Source: an uncultured Chitinophagaceae bacterium
GTDB lineage: Bacteria; Bacteroidota; Bacteroidia; Chitinophagales; Chitinophagaceae
Assembly (NCBI GenBank): GCA_963760045.1
Contig: CAVXBN010000022.1
Coordinates: forward strand, 136,682 to 200,681
Length of the DNA stretch: 64,000 nt
Direction of reading: 5' to 3'
Part shown: positions 27,180 to 38,224 of the stretch, piece after piece
Layout of the letters: the number at the start of each line of letters is the position of its first letter
Numbering within the stretch: position 1 is the stretch's first letter
Program-made: the position numbers and the translations under genes
The notes under the pieces: generated by a model
Database searches by the model: none
Seen by the model: the letters and a program-made list of their open reading frames with translations, nothing else
Told to the model about the DNA's origin: nothing

Positions 27180-27289
27180 TCGGATGTGCCCCTTTGTGTG
27201 CATCGTACACAGTTGGAAAAGAGAAAATTGAAAAAATTGAGCAGGTTTTTATACCTGATTTATGTAAGAAAAATACACATTTGCTCCAG

Positions 27290-30091
27290 ATGAAGGTTGC
27301 TAGCTATGAAAACAGGTTACACATTTACAGAGGCAAAACAGCCGGCTGGTTTGTGTGTATTGCACTGTTTGTTGCCATCTTCAGTTCCTGCTCCACAGGC
27401 ACCGGCACCAGGAAATACAAGATCGGCTTCTCACAATGCACAGGCGACGACAACTGGCGACGCAGAATGCTGGCCGATATGAAGCGCGAAATGGCATTTC
27501 ACCAGGATATAGATTTTATTTACCGCGATGCAAAGGACAACAACCAGTTGCAGGTAAAGCAGGTGAAAGAACTGATCAATGAAAAAGTAGACGTTCTCCT
27601 CATTTCTCCCAACGAAGCGCAACCACTCACTGGCGTAGTAGAAGATGCTTTTAACAGGGGCATACCTGTAATTGTGATCGACCGAACCATAGCATCACAA
27701 TTGTACACGAGCTTTATTGGTGCCGATAATGTGGAAGTGGGCAAAATGGCGGGCGACTATGCTGCCCGGCTTTTACATGGCAAAGGAAACATCATTGAGA
27801 TTATCGGTCGACCCGGCTCCACACCTGCTATCGGGCGGCAAAAAGGTTTCAGGGAAAGCATCAGCCAATATCCCGGGCTCACTATTACTTCGGAAGTATA
27901 TGGCAACTGGCTGAAAGAAGACGCAGCATCGCAACTGCTCAATATTAAAGACAAACTTGCGCAGGCCGATCTCATATTTGCTCATAACGATGTAATGGCG
28001 CTTGGCAGCTATAGCCTTTGCAAATCGCTCGGCATCAGCAACAAGGTCAAAATTATCGGCGTAGACGGGCAGCCGGGACCCGGCAGCGGTTTGGACCTCG
28101 TGAGCAATCAACTGATCGACGCTACTGTATTGTATCCCACCGGTGGCGAAGAAGCGATCCGCACGGCATTCAAAATATTGAATGGTGAACCCTTTGTAAA
28201 ACAAAACATTTTGCAAACGCTGGTGATCGATTCTACCAATGTGCGCCTAATGCAGTTGCAGGCACACAAAATAGACGAGCAGCAGAAAGACATCGAAAAG
28301 CAGCAGGTTTTGCTCGAAGAACAGCGAACTATTTACCGCGGACAAACCACTTTTTTATACATCACCGTGGCGGCACTCATTGTGGCGCTTTTGCTGGGAA
28401 TTATTGTATTGATAGCCTGGCGCAACAACCGCCGTATCAACCGTCGACTATCAGCAAGCAATGCAGAAATTTTGTCGCAGCGAAACCAGCTGGTAGAAAT
28501 GACGGCAAAAGCAAAAGAAGCGAGTGATGCTAAGTTTAATTTTTTTACCAATATTTCTCACGAGCTGCGCACTCCCCTTACCTTGATTTTAGGTCCGCTG
28601 GAAGATGCTCTTGCACATGCGAAACTGCATTTTGCCATTAAAAATGATTTGCTGTTGATTCATAAAAATGCATTGCGGCTGTTGCGGCTGGTAAACCAGT
28701 TGATGGACTTCAGGAAGATAGAACACAGCAAAATGAAGCTGCGCGCATCGGAAAACAACCTCACTTTGTTTGTTTCAGATATAGCCAATTCTTTCCGTGA
28801 AATGGCAAAGAAAAAGAACATCAGCCTGCAGATTTTTTGTAAAGTGAACGAGCTGAAAGTGTGGTTTGATGTGAATATGATGGACAAAGTGATGTTCAAC
28901 CTTCTTTCGAATGCTTTTAAGTTTACGAAGGACAACGGTTTTGTGACGGTTACGGTGGGCAAAAGCAAAGACGGCAAAAGTGCAGTGGTGAGTGTGGAAG
29001 ACACCGGCATTGGCATGACGCCCGAAGGCGCCGAACACGCGTTTGATCTGTTTTACCAGGAAAGAGGCACGACTTTTAAAGGCTCAGGGCTTGGATTGGC
29101 ATTGTCGAAAGAACTCATCCAGCTTCACAAAGGAACCATTGGTATCCAAACAGAAAAATGGAAAGGCACCCGCTTTGACATTTACCTGCCGCTTGGCAAC
29201 TCGCACTTATCTGATGATGAAATGGTGCCAACCGCCGTAGCCGACACTGCCACCTACGACGACATTAAAATTTATGCAGCCGGGCAAGAGTTGCCTGTAA
29301 TCAATGATGGTGAACAAAATCATGTTTCGAAAGAATATTCTATCCTCGTTATCGAGGACAGTGACGATTTACGCAGCTTTTTGAAATACCGCCTTGGGCA
29401 AAACTTTGATGTGTATGAAGCCGACAACGGCAACGCAGGTTTGAGCGTGGCTTACGATGTGATACCGGATCTTATTATCTGCGATATCGCCTTGCCGGGC
29501 AGCGATGGTTTTGCGATCAGCGAAACACTGAAAACTGACATTCGCTCTTCGCACATTCCCATTATTATACTTACGGCCAACAGCAGCATAGAAAACCAGA
29601 TCACCAGTCTTAAACTTACTGCCGACGCTTTCGTTGCCAAGCCTTTCAACCTGCAGCACCTGGAAGAAACCATCAAATCCCTGCTGAAAAACAGAAAATT
29701 GCTGAAAGACCACTATACATCTGATGTGGTGCCGGAAAATATGGCGGGTTCCCCTTCCAAACTTGACCGAAAGTTTATCAATGAATTTACCGCCATCGTT
29801 GAGAAAAATATTGGCAACGACAATTTTTCGGCAGAAGACATTTGCAAAGAAACCCATATCTCGCGCATGCAACTGAGCCGGAAGATAAAAGCATTGCTGG
29901 GCGTGAATGTGAGTGACTATATACTGAATGCACGCTTGCAAAAAGCCAAATACCTGCTGAGCAATGAAGACCTTACCATTGCGGAAGTAGCGTACCAGGT
30001 CGGCTTTGCTTCACAGGCTTATTTTTCTACTGTTTTTAAATCCAAAATGTCGCTTACGCCCTCGGAATTTAAAGAAAAGGCAAAGGGGTGA
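27290..30091 (+). CDS. Hybrid two-component system with periplasmic sugar-binding sensor (BT1754-like fructose sensor)
   Basis: IGFSQC...WR, LLISPNEA, FAHND.MA, GVDG, YPTGG sensor; TM; FFTNISHELRTPL; NLLSNAFKF; receiver PDLIICD; AraC HTH (VGF.SQAYFS.VFK). Confidence 0.93.
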   Translation: MKVASYENRLHIYRGKTAGWFVCIALFVAIFSSCSTGTGTRKYKIGFSQCTGDDNWRRRMLADMKREMAFHQDIDFIYRDAKDNNQLQVKQVKELINEKVDVLLISPNEAQPLTGVVEDAFNRGIPVIVIDRTIASQLYTSFIGADNVEVGKMAGDYAARLLHGKGNIIEIIGRPGSTPAIGRQKGFRESISQYPGLTITSEVYGNWLKEDAASQLLNIKDKLAQADLIFAHNDVMALGSYSLCKSLGISNKVKIIGVDGQPGPGSGLDLVSNQLIDATVLYPTGGEEAIRTAFKILNGEPFVKQNILQTLVIDSTNVRLMQLQAHKIDEQQKDIEKQQVLLEEQRTIYRGQTTFLYITVAALIVALLLGIIVLIAWRNNRRINRRLSASNAEILSQRNQLVEMTAKAKEASDAKFNFFTNISHELRTPLTLILGPLEDALAHAKLHFAIKNDLLLIHKNALRLLRLVNQLMDFRKIEHSKMKLRASENNLTLFVSDIANSFREMAKKKNISLQIFCKVNELKVWFDVNMMDKVMFNLLSNAFKFTKDNGFVTVTVGKSKDGKSAVVSVEDTGIGMTPEGAEHAFDLFYQERGTTFKGSGLGLALSKELIQLHKGTIGIQTEKWKGTRFDIYLPLGNSHLSDDEMVPTAVADTATYDDIKIYAAGQELPVINDGEQNHVSKEYSILVIEDSDDLRSFLKYRLGQNFDVYEADNGNAGLSVAYDVIPDLIICDIALPGSDGFAISETLKTDIRSSHIPIIILTANSSIENQITSLKLTADAFVAKPFNLQHLEETIKSLLKNRKLLKDHYTSDVVPENMAGSPSKLDRKFINEFTAIVEKNIGNDNFSAEDICKETHISRMQLSRKIKALLGVNVSDYILNARLQKAKYLLSNEDLTIAEVAYQVGFASQAYFSTVFKSKMSLTPSEFKEKAKG

Positions 30092-30095
30092 TGAG

Positions 30096-30165
30096 GGATT
30101 TTTGATTTGGGATTTCTGATTGGAGATTTGTGATTTCTGATTTAGGATTTTGGATTTGCGACTTT
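30096..30165. repeat. Heptamer tandem repeat, 10 x NGATTTN
   Basis: GGATTTT TGATTTG GGATTTC TGATTGG AGATTTG TGATTTC TGATTTA GGATTTT GGATTTG CGACTTT. Confidence 0.85.
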
Positions 30166-30217: not shown

Positions 30218-30685
30218 ATGACCAAGAAAGAACGACTACTCATTTTTGATAAATATAACGGGCATTGCGCCTATTGCGGTTGTGTGCTGCAGCAGGGCTG
30301 GCATGTAGATCATATCAAACCCATCAGGAGACACCTTCACAAAGAAGGGTGCCGGCATCCCAAACGCGACTGCATTGACAATTGCATGCCTGCCTGTGCC
30401 AGTTGCAATATCAACAAACACAGCATGAGCATTGAAGATTTCAGAAAGCTGGTGGGTGGTTTCATCAAGTCGCTTAACAGGGATTCCACGCAGTATAAAA
30501 TTGCGAAACGATATGGATTTGTGATAGAAGTAGAACAGCCCGTTGTGTTTTACTTTGAAAGTTATGTGCCTGCACCGGCAACGGCGTCTACTTGTGAGGA
30601 GGTACAGCCCGAACCTGAGGATCTACAAAAGCCTGCAGAAAAAACAACAAGCCGGCGGGCAACAAAAATTGCGGGTGTTGTTTAA
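30218..30685 (+). CDS. HNH endonuclease (phage-type, Zn-binding)
   Basis: GHCAYCG, WHVDHIKP, NCMPACASCNINK; C-terminal KRYG...VVFYFE as in phage HNH proteins. Confidence 0.88.
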   Translation: MTKKERLLIFDKYNGHCAYCGCVLQQGWHVDHIKPIRRHLHKEGCRHPKRDCIDNCMPACASCNINKHSMSIEDFRKLVGGFIKSLNRDSTQYKIAKRYGFVIEVEQPVVFYFESYVPAPATASTCEEVQPEPEDLQKPAEKTTSRRATKIAGVV

Positions 30686-30797: not shown

Positions 30798-33449
30798 TTA
30801 TTCTGCTACTACCAGGATGGTTCGGTTGATGACGTGCCCTTCCTGTTCGAGAACAATAAAATAATTACCACTGGTTATTTTGCCGGCAAAAGCCATCTGG
30901 AAAACATGTGAGCCGGCAGCCTGGTTGCCAAGATTGTACACCTGAGCCACGCGACCTGCCATATCCAACACTTTCAGTGATGTTTTTCCTTCATTTGCCA
31001 GTTTGTAAGAAACGGTTGTATTGGAATGTACAACCGGGTTCGGTGAAACGCTTAGCGCACTCCTGCCCGGGGCAGAAGCAATGAGAGAAGATGGTGCAAA
31101 ACCGCTGCCGCCGGTTATGTTGGCTGTATAGTCTTCCACTTCGCCATACGAATAGGAAAGACAGGAATTGGTACTCGCAGTGCTATATTTCATTTGTATC
31201 CTGATACGGGTAGCGCCGCTTTTCGCAGTGGCTGGCACCGTAAAAGTGATGGTAGCCGCAGTTTTGCTGCTTTTCGTTCCCACTTTTTCGCCGGTGTCCG
31301 CAAAGTCGCCGTCGCCATTATAGTCTATCCACAAAGTCCACGCTTCGTTATACGACGAGCCGGTGAAACCGGGCGTCAGTGTTGCTGTGTAGGATGAGCC
31401 TGCAGCCAGTGTGGTGCTCATACTTGTATAGTTGGCATAGCCTCCATTGTTGCCACTGGTATTGCTGATTGTGCCAAGTACGACCTTGTTGATAAACTCA
31501 TACGAGGTGGTGCCCGATGACGTGCAATACGTAACAGTGCCGGTATTGGTGGTAAATGATACGGGGCTGCTGTAAGTGCTTGTGGCAGATGCGCAAACTG
31601 CAGACACCTGGAAATCGTAGGAAGTACCCGCCGTTAAACCATTCAGAGTATACGAAGCGGAGGTGATGCCGGATACAGTGGTGAAGGTAGAAGAAGCACT
31701 CTGTTTCCACTGCAATGTATAGCTGTTGGCACCCGATACAGCACCCCACGACAGTACAGCCGAAGTATTGGTAATGCTGCCAGCGATGAGGCTGCCGGGA
31801 GTGGCACAGCCTGTGCTGCCACCGCCGCCTGCAGCACCTACGCCTACTGCATACCAGGCATTTTGCACCTGTGTAACTTCGGTGGAGGCTGCTCCGTACA
31901 GGTCAGTTGCTGCGCTGATGCTGGCTGTGCGCCAGTCGGCATATTGGGAGGAGGCTACAAGATATACCGTATTGGTGCGATACATGATTGCTGCGGCGGC
32001 CGATAGCCCGATGCCGGTTACGGAATAACTGTTGCCCAGGTCGTTGGTACCGGAACCGCCCGTCACCAAGAGGTAATACATGAAATTGCCAACACCACTG
32101 TTGGTATGCACACCATAGTTGTCGGAACTGCCCGTTACCCAGTAAGTACCCATATAAGTATCGGGCTGGCTGTAGGCATTGGGGTTGCTCATATCCCGGA
32201 TAAACCAGTTCATATCGTTGCTCAGTTTCCAATTCACGTCATTGGGTTTAGACCAGAACTGAACCGATTTACCAAAGATGTCGCTCATGCTCTCGTTCAT
32301 GGCGCCGGGCTCACGGCTATAGGTCAGGTTGCTGCTCGCCTGCGTAACGCCATGCGTCAGTTCATGTCCCGCCACATCTATTCCAGTTACACCACCGGGA
32401 TTGCCGGTTGAGCGTTTGCCAAAGTTCATAGACACGCCATCCCAATAAGCATTGTCGGTAGTATTGGCAATGTTTACATAACTGGTTAGTACAGAGCCGT
32501 TGTTGTCGTAGCTGTTACGGTTAAAATTCGTTTTATAATAAGCATAGGTTTGCGATACGCCATAATGTGCATCCAATGCAGCCTGGTTGGTACTGGTAAG
32601 TGTCCAGTCGGCGCTGGTGCTGGTGTAGTCCGCACCTTTAGAGCCATTTTCTCCATGATAGGTGACTACGCCATTGCCCTTGGTAAGGTCGCGCAGGCGG
32701 TAACTGCCATTCAGGAGATCGGAGTGAATTGTTTGCGAACCACTATAAGCAGTTGCAGCCGTTCCGGTAGCATCGGTATAATAAATCTTGTCATTTTTAC
32801 CCAAATATTCACCTGTAACCGCATCTATAAAATAGTCGGCACGGCTGAGAGGCTGAATTGCATAAATATCCACTTTCCAGGAAAGTCGCAGATCGCGAGG
32901 AGACACGTCGTTGCTGCTGTTAAACCATACGAGCGTTGCCTTTGGGGTATAAGAAGCGCCGGCGCCTATTTGCTTTTGCAGGGCTTTTTCCATTGCAGCG
33001 TCCTGCCACGCATAGCGTTGTGCAGCCACCTGCTTCATAGCCAGGCTCACTGCTTTCTCCGCTGTGAGTGAAGCTTTGTCGGGATGCTCGCCCATGGCTT
33101 CAAAATCTAGAACAATGGCGCCGCTCATACCCGTGAGTTTACCGTTTTTGGTATGCGCCACGTACATGGCATTTTCCACAGGCACACCTTTGTAGGTCTG
33201 CTGGTAGCGATAGTGAACAAAACCAATTTTGTCGGATTCCTGTTTGCTGACCAGCAGGTCAGACTTTGCATCCAATCCAAATAGCGACCTGGCGGACGAT
33301 GGGGAAAATTGCACCTGCATAGCTTCGGCAAGCCGCACATCGTGCTGAGAAATTCCTTTGGCACCGCGTATCATATCGCGAAGCGTGTTTTGAGCATTGG
33401 CGCAGCAAGCCAACGCCAGCAGCGAAAGAGTAAAAATCTGCCTTTTCAT
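30798..33449 (-). CDS. M4 (thermolysin-family) metallopeptidase with propeptide, FN3, GEVED and T9SS type A CTD
   Basis: HYRYQQTYKGVPV propeptide; NAYWDG, HELTH, GAMNESMSD, GVHTNSG; FN3 (W...Y...L.AGTSY.FQV); WIDYNGDGDF...GEVEDY; CTD VSPNP...DMAGR...GNYFI. Confidence 0.93.
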   Translation of the reverse strand: MKRQIFTLSLLALACCANAQNTLRDMIRGAKGISQHDVRLAEAMQVQFSPSSARSLFGLDAKSDLLVSKQESDKIGFVHYRYQQTYKGVPVENAMYVAHTKNGKLTGMSGAIVLDFEAMGEHPDKASLTAEKAVSLAMKQVAAQRYAWQDAAMEKALQKQIGAGASYTPKATLVWFNSSNDVSPRDLRLSWKVDIYAIQPLSRADYFIDAVTGEYLGKNDKIYYTDATGTAATAYSGSQTIHSDLLNGSYRLRDLTKGNGVVTYHGENGSKGADYTSTSADWTLTSTNQAALDAHYGVSQTYAYYKTNFNRNSYDNNGSVLTSYVNIANTTDNAYWDGVSMNFGKRSTGNPGGVTGIDVAGHELTHGVTQASSNLTYSREPGAMNESMSDIFGKSVQFWSKPNDVNWKLSNDMNWFIRDMSNPNAYSQPDTYMGTYWVTGSSDNYGVHTNSGVGNFMYYLLVTGGSGTNDLGNSYSVTGIGLSAAAAIMYRTNTVYLVASSQYADWRTASISAATDLYGAASTEVTQVQNAWYAVGVGAAGGGGSTGCATPGSLIAGSITNTSAVLSWGAVSGANSYTLQWKQSASSTFTTVSGITSASYTLNGLTAGTSYDFQVSAVCASATSTYSSPVSFTTNTGTVTYCTSSGTTSYEFINKVVLGTISNTSGNNGGYANYTSMSTTLAAGSSYTATLTPGFTGSSYNEAWTLWIDYNGDGDFADTGEKVGTKSSKTAATITFTVPATAKSGATRIRIQMKYSTASTNSCLSYSYGEVEDYTANITGGSGFAPSSLIASAPGRSALSVSPNPVVHSNTTVSYKLANEGKTSLKVLDMAGRVAQVYNLGNQAAGSHVFQMAFAGKITSGNYFIVLEQEGHVINRTILVVAE

Positions 33450-33482: not shown

Positions 33483-33782
33483 GAAAGAAGTGATATGGAG
33501 AATAGATAAAAAGGAGCAGGTGTCAGCAGGTATCCTGCAATGGTTTGCTGTATTCCATACTTGTGACGCTGAAAATTTAATCAGGCAATGAAGTTAAGTG
33601 TTTTGCATTCACAAGTTTTAAAAGCTAATATTTATTTTTTTTGCCAATTATTCCCCCTTTTGGGCTGTAAAAACTTCTCCGCAAAACATTCATCCATCTT
33701 GAATTTATATGAATTCATCATACGTATTGTTATATAATCAAATAAGGATTATATTAGTGCTTTACCCCTTAAAGAACATCCT

Positions 33783-34559
33783 ATGCGATTCAGAATTTCC
33801 CTGCATAGCAGCGAGCCCGGTGCTGTGTTACCTTGCCATTACCACCAACCTTTGTCTTCCGCCATTCACAGGATGGTAGATAGTGCAGGAAGTTACCTGT
33901 CACCACCATACGCAGAAACTGCTGGCACACCGGGTGTACCGATGTTTACATTTTCCGATCTGCAAGCTTCCTTTACCCGGCAAGGCGACTGCCTCCGCCT
34001 CGCATCCGGGCATGCAGAAATGGTCATTTGCTTTTATTTGCCAGAGGAATCTACCGGCATCATCAGGGAATTAATGACCGGTCAATTATTGGAAGTATCG
34101 GATGCAACAAGCAGCGTGGCGTTTACGATAACCGGTATCGAGAATTTTGCACAACCGTTCTCTCCACCCGGTACCGTGTTGCTGCAACCCCTTTCACCTT
34201 TGGCTGCCGGTAAGAAAAACGAACAGGGCGGATACGATTATCTCTCTCCCGCTGAAGCAGGTTATGCAGATTGTTTAGTTGAAAACTGGCTGGACAGTTG
34301 GCGCATCTTCCAGGGAGTGCATGAAGCAGAAACAGTTTCTTTACGCAAGGCTATATCGATAGACATAGAGTTGTTACGGTATCCACCGCAACAGCGTATG
34401 GTTTGCCTCTATAGTGAAACAGGAAACAACGTACGAGCGAAGGGCTACAACAAATTCAGGCTTGCGGTGCAGGCACCTGGCACCTTGCTAAAACTGGCGC
34501 TGGATGCAGGTTTGGGACTGCATACCGACCAGGGTTTCGGATGTGTGGGAATTGCGTAA
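33783..34559 (+). CDS. cas6: Orphan CRISPR-associated Cas6 family RAMP protein
   Basis: MRFRISL...LP..Y..PLSSAI, FTFS.L, LSPL, YL.P....Y...L.EN, and C-terminal G-loop AGLGLHTDQGFGCV (GhGxxxxxGhG). 258 aa, intact. Confidence 0.88.
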   Translation: MRFRISLHSSEPGAVLPCHYHQPLSSAIHRMVDSAGSYLSPPYAETAGTPGVPMFTFSDLQASFTRQGDCLRLASGHAEMVICFYLPEESTGIIRELMTGQLLEVSDATSSVAFTITGIENFAQPFSPPGTVLLQPLSPLAAGKKNEQGGYDYLSPAEAGYADCLVENWLDSWRIFQGVHEAETVSLRKAISIDIELLRYPPQQRMVCLYSETGNNVRAKGYNKFRLAVQAPGTLLKLALDAGLGLHTDQGFGCVGIA

Positions 34560-34893: not shown

Positions 34894-34917
34894 TATGGAT
34901 AAATGAATATGTACTAT

Positions 34918-35226
34918 ATGGCAACACTAACCAATATCAAAATTCAACTGCTTTCGGGAACCATTGGCAAGCAGTTGGTAGTTAAACAATACGTTGATAA
35001 AACTGTTGTGAGCAAATATCCTGACATGAGCCGTGTGAAGGCAAGGGAACGGCAAAAACAAAAATAGGATATTATTTATACAAGCCGTTGCTTATGCAAA
35101 AGCCATCAACAATGACCCCGCAGTGAAAGCACGCGATCTTACAAAAGTTAACAAAGGGCAAAGTGTATATCATTTCATTTTGCTCTAAAGAAATATCTGA
35201 AGGCTCATAATAAAAACAGGAAGTAA
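34918..35226 (+). pseudogene. Small basic Bacteroidota hypothetical protein (about 95 aa), disrupted
   Basis: Hand translation MATLTNIKIQLLSGTIGKQLVVKQYVDKTVVSKYPDMSRVKARERQKQK*, then shifted FIQAVAYAKAINNDPAVKA...GQSVYHF. Resembles a Bacteroidota family I recall with SG.IGKQ.V.KQY..KTV.SKYPD...F..AVAYAK. Confidence 0.6.
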
Positions 35227-36997: not shown

Positions 36998-37315
36998 ATG
37001 GGAACTACAAAGTCATTGGAATTTAGCATAAAGGAAAATAAAATTGCGCAGTATGCCAAGGCATTGGCGCACCCCGCACGCATTGCCATCTTGCAGTTTT
37101 TGGTTAAAAAACAATCCTGTATGTGTGGCGATATTGTAGAAGTGCTGCCGCTTTCGCAAAGTACGGTTTCCCAACACCTGAAAGAACTAAAGGAAGCCGG
37201 ACTGATCAAAGGTGAAACGGAAGGAACGAAAGTGTGTTACTGCATTAATGAAAAAGAATGGGCAAAAGCCGAAAAAGCTCTCAGCCTGTTATTCGGTTCC
37301 TACACGGACAGGTAG
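36998..37315 (+). CDS. arsR: ArsR/SmtB family repressor
   Basis: [42 protein letters not shown]; heads the ars cluster. Confidence 0.92.
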
Positions 37316-37346
37316 TAGTTGCTGCTGATTTTTTTTGCACCTAATC

Positions 37347-37362
37347 ATCGTGATATTACGAT
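37347..37362. promoter_or_regulatory. Second ArsR-box-like palindrome
   Basis: ATCGTGATATTACGAT between arsR and arsM; same core as box 1 (ATCGTAATATTGCGAT). Confidence 0.65.
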
Positions 37363-37381
37363 AAATATAAACTCAGATACT

Positions 37382-38224
37382 ATGCAAACAAATGAACAAC
37401 TGAAAGAAGTAGTAAAACAGAAGTATGCAGAAATTGCCTTGCAGAACAAAGAAGCCAATTCAGCATCCTGCTGTGGTTCGGGCGGCTGCAGCACAGAAGT
37501 TTACAACATCATGTCAGACGACTACACAACGCTTGCAGGCTACCACGAAGACGCTGATCTTGGACTTGGCTGCGGACTTCCCACGCAATATGCGCATATT
37601 AAAAAAGGCGATGTGGTAGTAGACCTTGGCAGCGGCGCCGGCAACGACGCATTTATAGCCCGCCACGAAACGGGCGAAGCTGGAAAGGTGATCGGCATTG
37701 ACTTTACACCTGCCATGATTGATAAAGCAAAACGCAATGCAGCAGCCCGCGGATTTACCAACGTAGAATTCCGGCAGGGCGATATTGAAAACATGCCTCT
37801 TGCCGCCAATACTGCCGATGTGGTTGTAAGCAATTGCGTACTGAACCTCGTTCCTGACAAGGAAGCAGTGTTGAAAGAAATCTATCGTGTGCTGAAACCC
37901 GGCGGACACTTTTCCATTTCCGATATCCTCATAGACGGAACACTACCTGAAGGCATACAGGAAGCGGCAGAAATGTATGCGGGCTGCATCACCGGTGCCA
38001 TTGGCAGGCAACCCTATCTTGACATGATCCTCCGCTCAGGGTTCACCAATCTTACAATTCAAAAAGAAAAACCCATCCACATTCCCGGCGACATTCTGGA
38101 AAAGTATCTTTCTGCCGCCCAGATAGACGAATTCAGACAGTCGGGCACCGGAATAAACAGTCTGACTATCTATGCGGAAAAACCGCTCACTTCGCCCTGC
38201 TGCGGCACGCAATGCTGCCGTTAA
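37382..38224 (+). CDS. arsM: Arsenite S-adenosylmethionine methyltransferase
   Basis: SCC N-terminus, LGLGCG.P, VDLGSGAGND, SNCVLNL, AGCI.GA (conserved cysteines), C-terminal CC..CC. Confidence 0.93.
   Translation: MQTNEQLKEVVKQKYAEIALQNKEANSASCCGSGGCSTEVYNIMSDDYTTLAGYHEDADLGLGCGLPTQYAHIKKGDVVVDLGSGAGNDAFIARHETGEAGKVIGIDFTPAMIDKAKRNAAARGFTNVEFRQGDIENMPLAANTADVVVSNCVLNLVPDKEAVLKEIYRVLKPGGHFSISDILIDGTLPEGIQEAAEMYAGCITGAIGRQPYLDMILRSGFTNLTIQKEKPIHIPGDILEKYLSAAQIDEFRQSGTGINSLTIYAEKPLTSPCCGTQCCR

Follow-up and report, generated by a model that had tools for sequence, protein, structure and literature searches.

The active sites of Cas6 proteins are plastic, with a catalytic histidine that lies at differing positions in different enzymes and is absent in some of them (PMC3902920). 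The same source describes PH0350 of Pyrococcus horikoshii as non-catalytic (PMC3902920). PH0350 (3QJJ, 3QJP) and a Cas6-related protein of P. furiosus (3UFC) have a Cas6 fold but lack the canonical His/Lys loop, and this is also the state of the solitary Cas6 studied here, which is encoded in the window, i.e. the whole 64-kb stretch of DNA from an uncultured Chitinophagaceae bacterium that was analysed. Both proteins are among the best structural matches of the window Cas6, and in the profile alignment their His loop is likewise remodelled. The two proteins occur in genomes that are rich in CRISPR arrays, and they bind repeat RNA. The window Cas6 differs from them in having no array in view, in having originated independently within a type I-B clade of bacteria and in being a singleton; it resembles the PH0350 type in kind, not by common descent. 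A study on Thermus thermophilus ascribes a regulatory, non-processing role to Cas6-2, which competes during Cascade assembly (PMC12102369). This protein is a precedent for a Cas6 that acts other than by pre-crRNA cutting, but it can play this role only together with a resident type I-B Cascade and with crRNA, neither of which was found in the assembly that contains the window Cas6.

The catalytic positions are best referred to Cas6 of P. furiosus (PDB 3I4H and 3PKM), the enzyme for which Tyr31, His46 and Lys52 were defined. Its fold matches that of the window Cas6 with a TM score of 0.69-0.80 at ~16-17% identity, and the motifs align residue for residue, but the triad is wholly substituted here. 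The type I-B Cas6 proteins of the same genus and family (e.g. G006 locus L016, L025, L026) share with the window Cas6 the clade, the length, the start M-R-F-R, the fold and the G-loop, and their genes possess a homologous promoter-like motif upstream. These proteins have the residues Y/H/K and are neutral to basic, whereas the window Cas6 has H/A/P, is acidic and is no longer detected by PF21350. Also unlike these type I-B copies, it has no cas8b, cas7, cas5, cas3, cas4, cas1, cas2 or array nearby or in the assembly. The features of the locus are as follows, with positions counted from the first letter of the window:

30798..33449, minus strand: gene for a secreted M4 metalloprotease (FTP, M4 of the thermolysin type, fn3, GEVED, weak Por_Secre_tail)
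33739..33757, plus strand: promoter-like motif CAAATA ... TATATTAG, ~30 nt before the cas6 start codon
33783..34559, plus strand: solitary cas6-derived ORF of 258 aa, with ATG start, intact and without internal stop
33867..33869, plus strand: CAC, the His codon 29, aligned with P. furiosus Tyr31; this position is Tyr in 139 of 155 relatives
33906..33941, plus strand: remodelled His loop, family F-L-H...K-x-F-K changed to P-Y-A...P-G-V-P, with a 3-residue in-frame deletion
33912-33914, plus strand: Ala44 for the His46 equivalent, within the His loop
33939-33941, plus strand: Pro53 for the Lys52 equivalent, within the His loop
34509..34541, plus strand: glycine-rich loop G-L-G-L-H-T-D-Q-G-F-G, fully kept
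34903..35190, plus strand: broken small gene downstream of cas6, interrupted first by a premature stop codon and further along by a change of frame

The first-pass annotation, which was made from the sequence alone, had described the gene product as a full-length RAMP protein with the Cas6 G-loop, and the PF01881 profile and a structure prediction bear this out. PF01881 (Cas_Cas6_C) matches the window Cas6 with an E value of 4.6e-13 and a score of 50.5 bits, its cut-off being 23. The equivalog model TIGR01877 reaches 29.3 bits, which is below its cut-off of 58.65, and the N-terminal model PF21350, which matches nearly all full-length close homologs, gave no match in the window Cas6. An AlphaFold2 model, which was built with the family alignment and therefore leans towards the family fold, has a pLDDT of 85.6 and a pTM of 0.84, with only residues 42-50 disordered or of low confidence, and it contains two predicted ferredoxin/RRM-like domains. 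The top 35 PDB matches of this model are all Cas6 proteins (best E value 2e-17, TM 0.73-0.81), led by 5yi6, 3qjj, 3ufc, 3i4h and 3pkm. All four glycines of the G-loop (G243, G245, G251, G253) are present, each at a position that is Gly in 152-154 of the 155 relatives. The protein is acidic, with a pI of 5.47, six lysines and a net charge of -7, the family range being -2 to +9. In the alignment, the promoter-like motif is common to the upstream regions of the cas6 copies of G012 and G006; a sigma-70-like match at 33727-33755 is a consensus match only and marks a putative promoter.

In the family profile, the motifs AIY, FLH and KLFTFS align residue for residue with Tyr31, His46 and Lys52 of P. 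furiosus Cas6, and the alignment that had been drawn by eye is correct. At the equivalents of these residues the window Cas6 possesses His29, Ala44 and Pro53, so that all three triad residues are replaced, as had been claimed. The Y-H-K/R triad is found in 87% of 155 diverse full-length relatives, which a search through 1.84 billion cluster representatives had yielded, and the canonical His is missing in ~10% of them. The remodelled His loop coincides with the sole low-confidence stretch of the model, residues 42-50. Neither the P. furiosus triad nor an equivalent His-based site is present at the aligned positions, and in view of the further losses described below the window Cas6 should hardly be able to cleave type I-B repeat RNA any longer. 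New histidines are found at 19, 21 and 29, and four relatives also possess His at the Tyr31 position.

Solitary relatives without the triad exist. In P0096, P0147 and P0133 (W-I-H-K ... W-L-K ... Y-L-D) and in P0163 only PF01881 is detected, and like the window Cas6 they possess His at the Tyr31 position and have no cas neighbours on their short contigs. P0096 (L033:2367-3158), for example, lies between TPR and glycosyltransferase genes on a 4.7-kb contig without a cas gene. The WIHK subfamily formed by P0096, P0147 and P0133 carries Lys at the His46 position. A membership of the window Cas6 in this subfamily was considered and rejected: the identity is 24-25%, and the canonical siblings are more alike to the subfamily than the window Cas6 is. 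The WIHK subfamily was not found in the genus of the window Cas6.

The origin of the window Cas6 lies in a type I-B-like clade. In a site-heterogeneous tree it falls inside a same-genus cas6 clade of 7-8 rows (support 98/91 and 99/98), on a terminal branch of 1.73 substitutions per site, against a median of 0.26. A placement outside the wider clade of 18 rows is marginally rejected by the AU test (p 0.026), whereas a placement just outside the seven siblings is not (p 0.15). An LG+G4 tree had put the protein basal to the whole clade; in the light of the site-heterogeneous tree and the AU results, this placement was rejected as an effect of long-branch attraction. The window Cas6 is 39-48% identical to the same-genus copies, which are 69-74% identical among themselves, and its identities to all other members are ~0.62 times those of the G006 copy, which is the pattern of one long private branch. 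Closer relatives were found neither among ~15 billion proteins nor in metagenome and genome contig collections, and no member of a divergent lineage with at least 50% identity was among these ~15 billion proteins. The derived form is known from one incomplete genome, and there is no cross-species conservation of the derived state.

In eight of ten related loci, a type I cas operon opens with cas6, in the order cas6, cas8b/DevT or Cas5p-Csp2, cas7/DevR, cas5, cas3, cas4, cas1 and cas2, and three of these loci have arrays with 30-nt repeats within 10 kb; the two exceptions are those of G004 and G012. Within the genus, G006 and G011 possess complete CRISPR-Cas loci, with a type I-B repeat of 30 nt. 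The complete genome of G004 contains a solitary canonical cas6 (L024:10001-10798) between ispF/PorV genes and transposase fragments, no DevR/Cas7 in the genome, and its nearest Cas1 ~190 kb away from cas6. One of the Cas1 matches of this genome, at that distance, consists of two pieces roughly 1.1 kb apart. The cas6 of the sister species G012 is a pseudogene, and the genus thus shows a decay series, from the complete loci of G006 and G011 and the solitary canonical gene of G004 to the pseudogene of G012. The earlier proposal that the locus was the best candidate in this DNA for an undescribed system is therefore not upheld: what encodes the window Cas6 is the opening gene of a type I-B-like cas operon, left on its own.

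The solitude of the gene, which had been noted for about 30 kb on either side, was confirmed for the window and extended to the source assembly (G000; 3.69 Mb, 29 contigs). No CRISPR array was found in the 64-kb window or in this assembly, which is 68.8% complete, and the absence applies to the assembly and not to the organism for that reason. Likewise, neither the window nor the 3.69-Mb assembly contains another gene matching Cas1, Cas2, RAMP, DevR/Cas7, Cas3_HD or Cas5, and tblastn searches of the assembly for remnants of type I-B cas genes were negative. I-B repeat-like sequences, searched with the repeats of the related loci as queries, are also absent from the 3.69 Mb, and no array fragments are present at the contig ends. 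A cas6-less CRISPR locus was accordingly not found in the assembly. A k-mer scan flagged C16:94609-96233 (L003:610-2234) as an array, but this was rejected as a coding leucine-rich-repeat tandem array. It comprises ~23 copies of a 69-bp unit, whole units being 87-100% identical, within two adjacent leucine-rich-repeat ORFs of 204 and 572 aa, which may be separate because of a break or because the assembly has collapsed here. No Rfam families were found in the window.

The gene had been described as divergent from a T9SS protease, and of this description the divergent placement next to the M4 protease gene holds, whereas for the T9SS sorting tail the match is weak, with an E value of 3e-4 that falls short of the cut-off. 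The flanking genes are closest to those of G012, with 62-89% amino-acid identity. There, the cas6 pseudogene (L022:9696-10486; G012:C14) also adjoins the orthologous protease gene, but it is broken by four frameshifts. It encodes the canonical Tyr/His/Lys and has only one of 83 conserved columns changed. The pseudogene lies 24 bases from a contig end, and its frameshifts look real because ~8 kb of flanking genes contain none. In G013 an unrelated DUF5672 gene, instead of cas6, precedes the protease ortholog. The gene order varies across G000, G012 and G013, and the spot is thus a variable one. The protease is no functional partner; a functional link between the two was rejected, given the broken cas6 in G012 and the DUF5672 gene at that spot in G013.

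The small gene next to cas6 is found on opposite sides, after cas6 and broken in G000, before cas6 in G012, where an intact homolog of 116 aa lies upstream (L022:9115-9465). No Pfam family was found for the broken gene at 34903..35190, and DNA similar to it is present at other places in G002, G005, G007 and G008. Two further observations concern the surroundings. The window contains a tandem repeat of GGGATTT in ~9 copies (30095-30158), in the gap that separates a small HNH endonuclease gene (30218-30685) from a gene (27194-30091) for a hybrid sensor kinase/AraC regulator. On the plus strand at 36998-38224, an ArsR-family regulator precedes a SAM-dependent methyltransferase whose ends are rich in Cys, and the two resemble an arsenite methyltransferase pair.

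The ancestral constraints on Cas6 are largely gone from the window copy, as judged from the long branch, the 33 of 80 family-conserved columns that are changed (0-5 in the siblings), the altered invariant columns and the loss of lysines and charge. The changes affect 36% of the invariant and 47% of the near-invariant columns, and invariant columns are changed as often as variable ones, whereas distant members within cas operons keep every invariant column. The loss of conserved residues in the N-terminal and C-terminal domains (49% versus 32%) does not differ significantly (p 0.17). Non-synonymous divergence is still far below synonymous divergence: codon positions 1 and 2 differ by 0.33 from those of the G006 gene, whereas four-fold sites are saturated at 0.64-0.71, as in pairs of functional family members whose proteins are equally distant. 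NG86 and YN00 estimates of dS are undefined for all pairs with the window cas6, and no dN/dS ratio is obtainable because the synonymous sites are saturated. A two-phase test on third positions gave small P values that were discounted, as it mis-modelled time and relaxed selection adds no synonymous change; it was replaced by a family-wide table of non-synonymous versus synonymous divergence.

Of the three readings that the first-pass annotation had offered, i.e. a non-cleaving RNA-binding protein exapted for regulation, a trans-acting processor with a different active site and a gene in early decay, the non-cleaving part of the first fits best, while its RNA-binding part is weakened by the lost lysines and the acidic pI. 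Early decay would make the gene a function-less relic that drifted after the loss of the operon and, by luck, acquired neither a stop nor a frameshift. As a rule, solitary cas genes are leftovers, and the altered invariant and near-invariant columns, the lost triad and lysines, a GC content at codon position 2 that has drifted towards that of the other positions, the frameshifted syntenic copy in G012, the broken small gene that adjoins the window cas6, and the decay series within the genus would all agree with this. Other results speak against it. In substitution-only neutral simulations that match the excess divergence, and which depend on the baseline and ignore that the gene was picked for its intactness, the frame stayed open in 0.4% of the runs (P 0.004), and under a conservative baseline of older divergence in 3% (P 0.03), even without indels. 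The window cas6 has no frameshift, its single indel being the in-frame deletion, and this worsens the relic model, because the G012 pseudogene gained four frameshifts before notable substitution. Furthermore, the replacements at conserved columns have a mean BLOSUM score of -0.03, against -0.75 +/- 0.28 under mutation alone (P 0.005), and they are conservative at the hydrophobic columns alone (P 0.014), with radical changes at Tyr, His, Lys and Arg; the low non-synonymous divergence also argues against a relic. Simple neutral decay thus fits poorly, and it fits worst of the three readings. We consider the relic unlikely.

Decidedly improbable, in our view, is a recently orphaned xenolog, i.e. 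a gene from a divergent, unsampled type I-B locus with a non-canonical Cas6 site, the rest of which was deleted so that an intact but idle gene was left behind. The four-fold divergence from the G012 copy is 0.68, compared to 0.51-0.62 for the flanking genes, so that an uptake from a divergent lineage outside those sampled is conceivable, and the spot is variable: the small gene lies after cas6 in G000 but before it in G012, and G013 has the DUF5672 gene there. The relatives without the canonical His and the plasticity of Cas6 active sites (PMC3902920) would allow for such a source. Against this stand the missing lineage member at 50% identity in ~15 billion proteins, the tree, which keeps the window Cas6 inside the same-genus clade, and the distant functional members, in which every invariant column is kept, while the window Cas6 has lost 36% of them. 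Very improbable is a Cas6 acting in trans with a rewired site (e.g. His29, His19 or His21) on a CRISPR-Cas locus that would lie within the 31% of the genome missing from the assembly. Such a protein would make use of the intact G-loop and the new histidines, of which the one at the Tyr31 position recurs in four relatives, and the catalytic His does differ in position among Cas6 enzymes or is missing (PMC3902920); the assembly is incomplete and arrays often fail to assemble. However, the 3.69 Mb are devoid of other cas genes, of arrays and of repeat-like sequences, the contig ends carry no array fragments, cas6 is an operon-first and not a stand-alone gene in this clade, and neither the loss of lysines with an acidic pI nor the wholesale loss of family-invariant residues would be expected of it.

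The reading that we prefer, although its probability falls a little short of even, is a folded, non-cleaving protein of the Cas6 fold that is kept under altered selection after the loss of a type I-B system. A type I-B-like CRISPR-Cas locus would once have sat at the variable spot adjoining the protease gene, and the effector genes, the adaptation genes and the array would have been lost, with cas6 as the last piece. On its long private branch the protein lost the Tyr/His/Lys triad, ~40% of the conserved residues and much of its positive charge, while its reading frame, its hydrophobic core and its glycine-rich loop were retained. It may persist as a pseudo-nuclease under altered purifying selection that would still be ongoing, and its present role could be a weak or specific RNA binding without cleavage, which is a guess. 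Counting against selection are the flat spread of changes over the conservation classes, which is also expected from decay, the broken neighbouring small gene and the pseudogene state of the syntenic cas6 in G012. We regard it as somewhat unlikely that the protein represents a very young, independent exaptation within a canonical cas6 clade, in which selection retained a Cas6 once its type I-B system had gone, the triad and the RNA-binding charge were shed, and the folded protein took on a role outside CRISPR.

Cas6 proteins that are solitary or non-catalytic were known before, and the window Cas6 adds one more case. Most of them are old, conserved side branches, whereas the window Cas6 is recent and lies inside a working type I-B clade, in a genus within which stages of cas loss are visible. 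Either way, the gene marks no new defence system, and the adjoining protease is unrelated to it. If the gene is not retained, it serves as a warning that an intact frame and a match to a Cas6 profile do not equal a working nuclease. If selection truly retains it, the genus would offer a small natural series for studying how Cas proteins leave CRISPR immunity.
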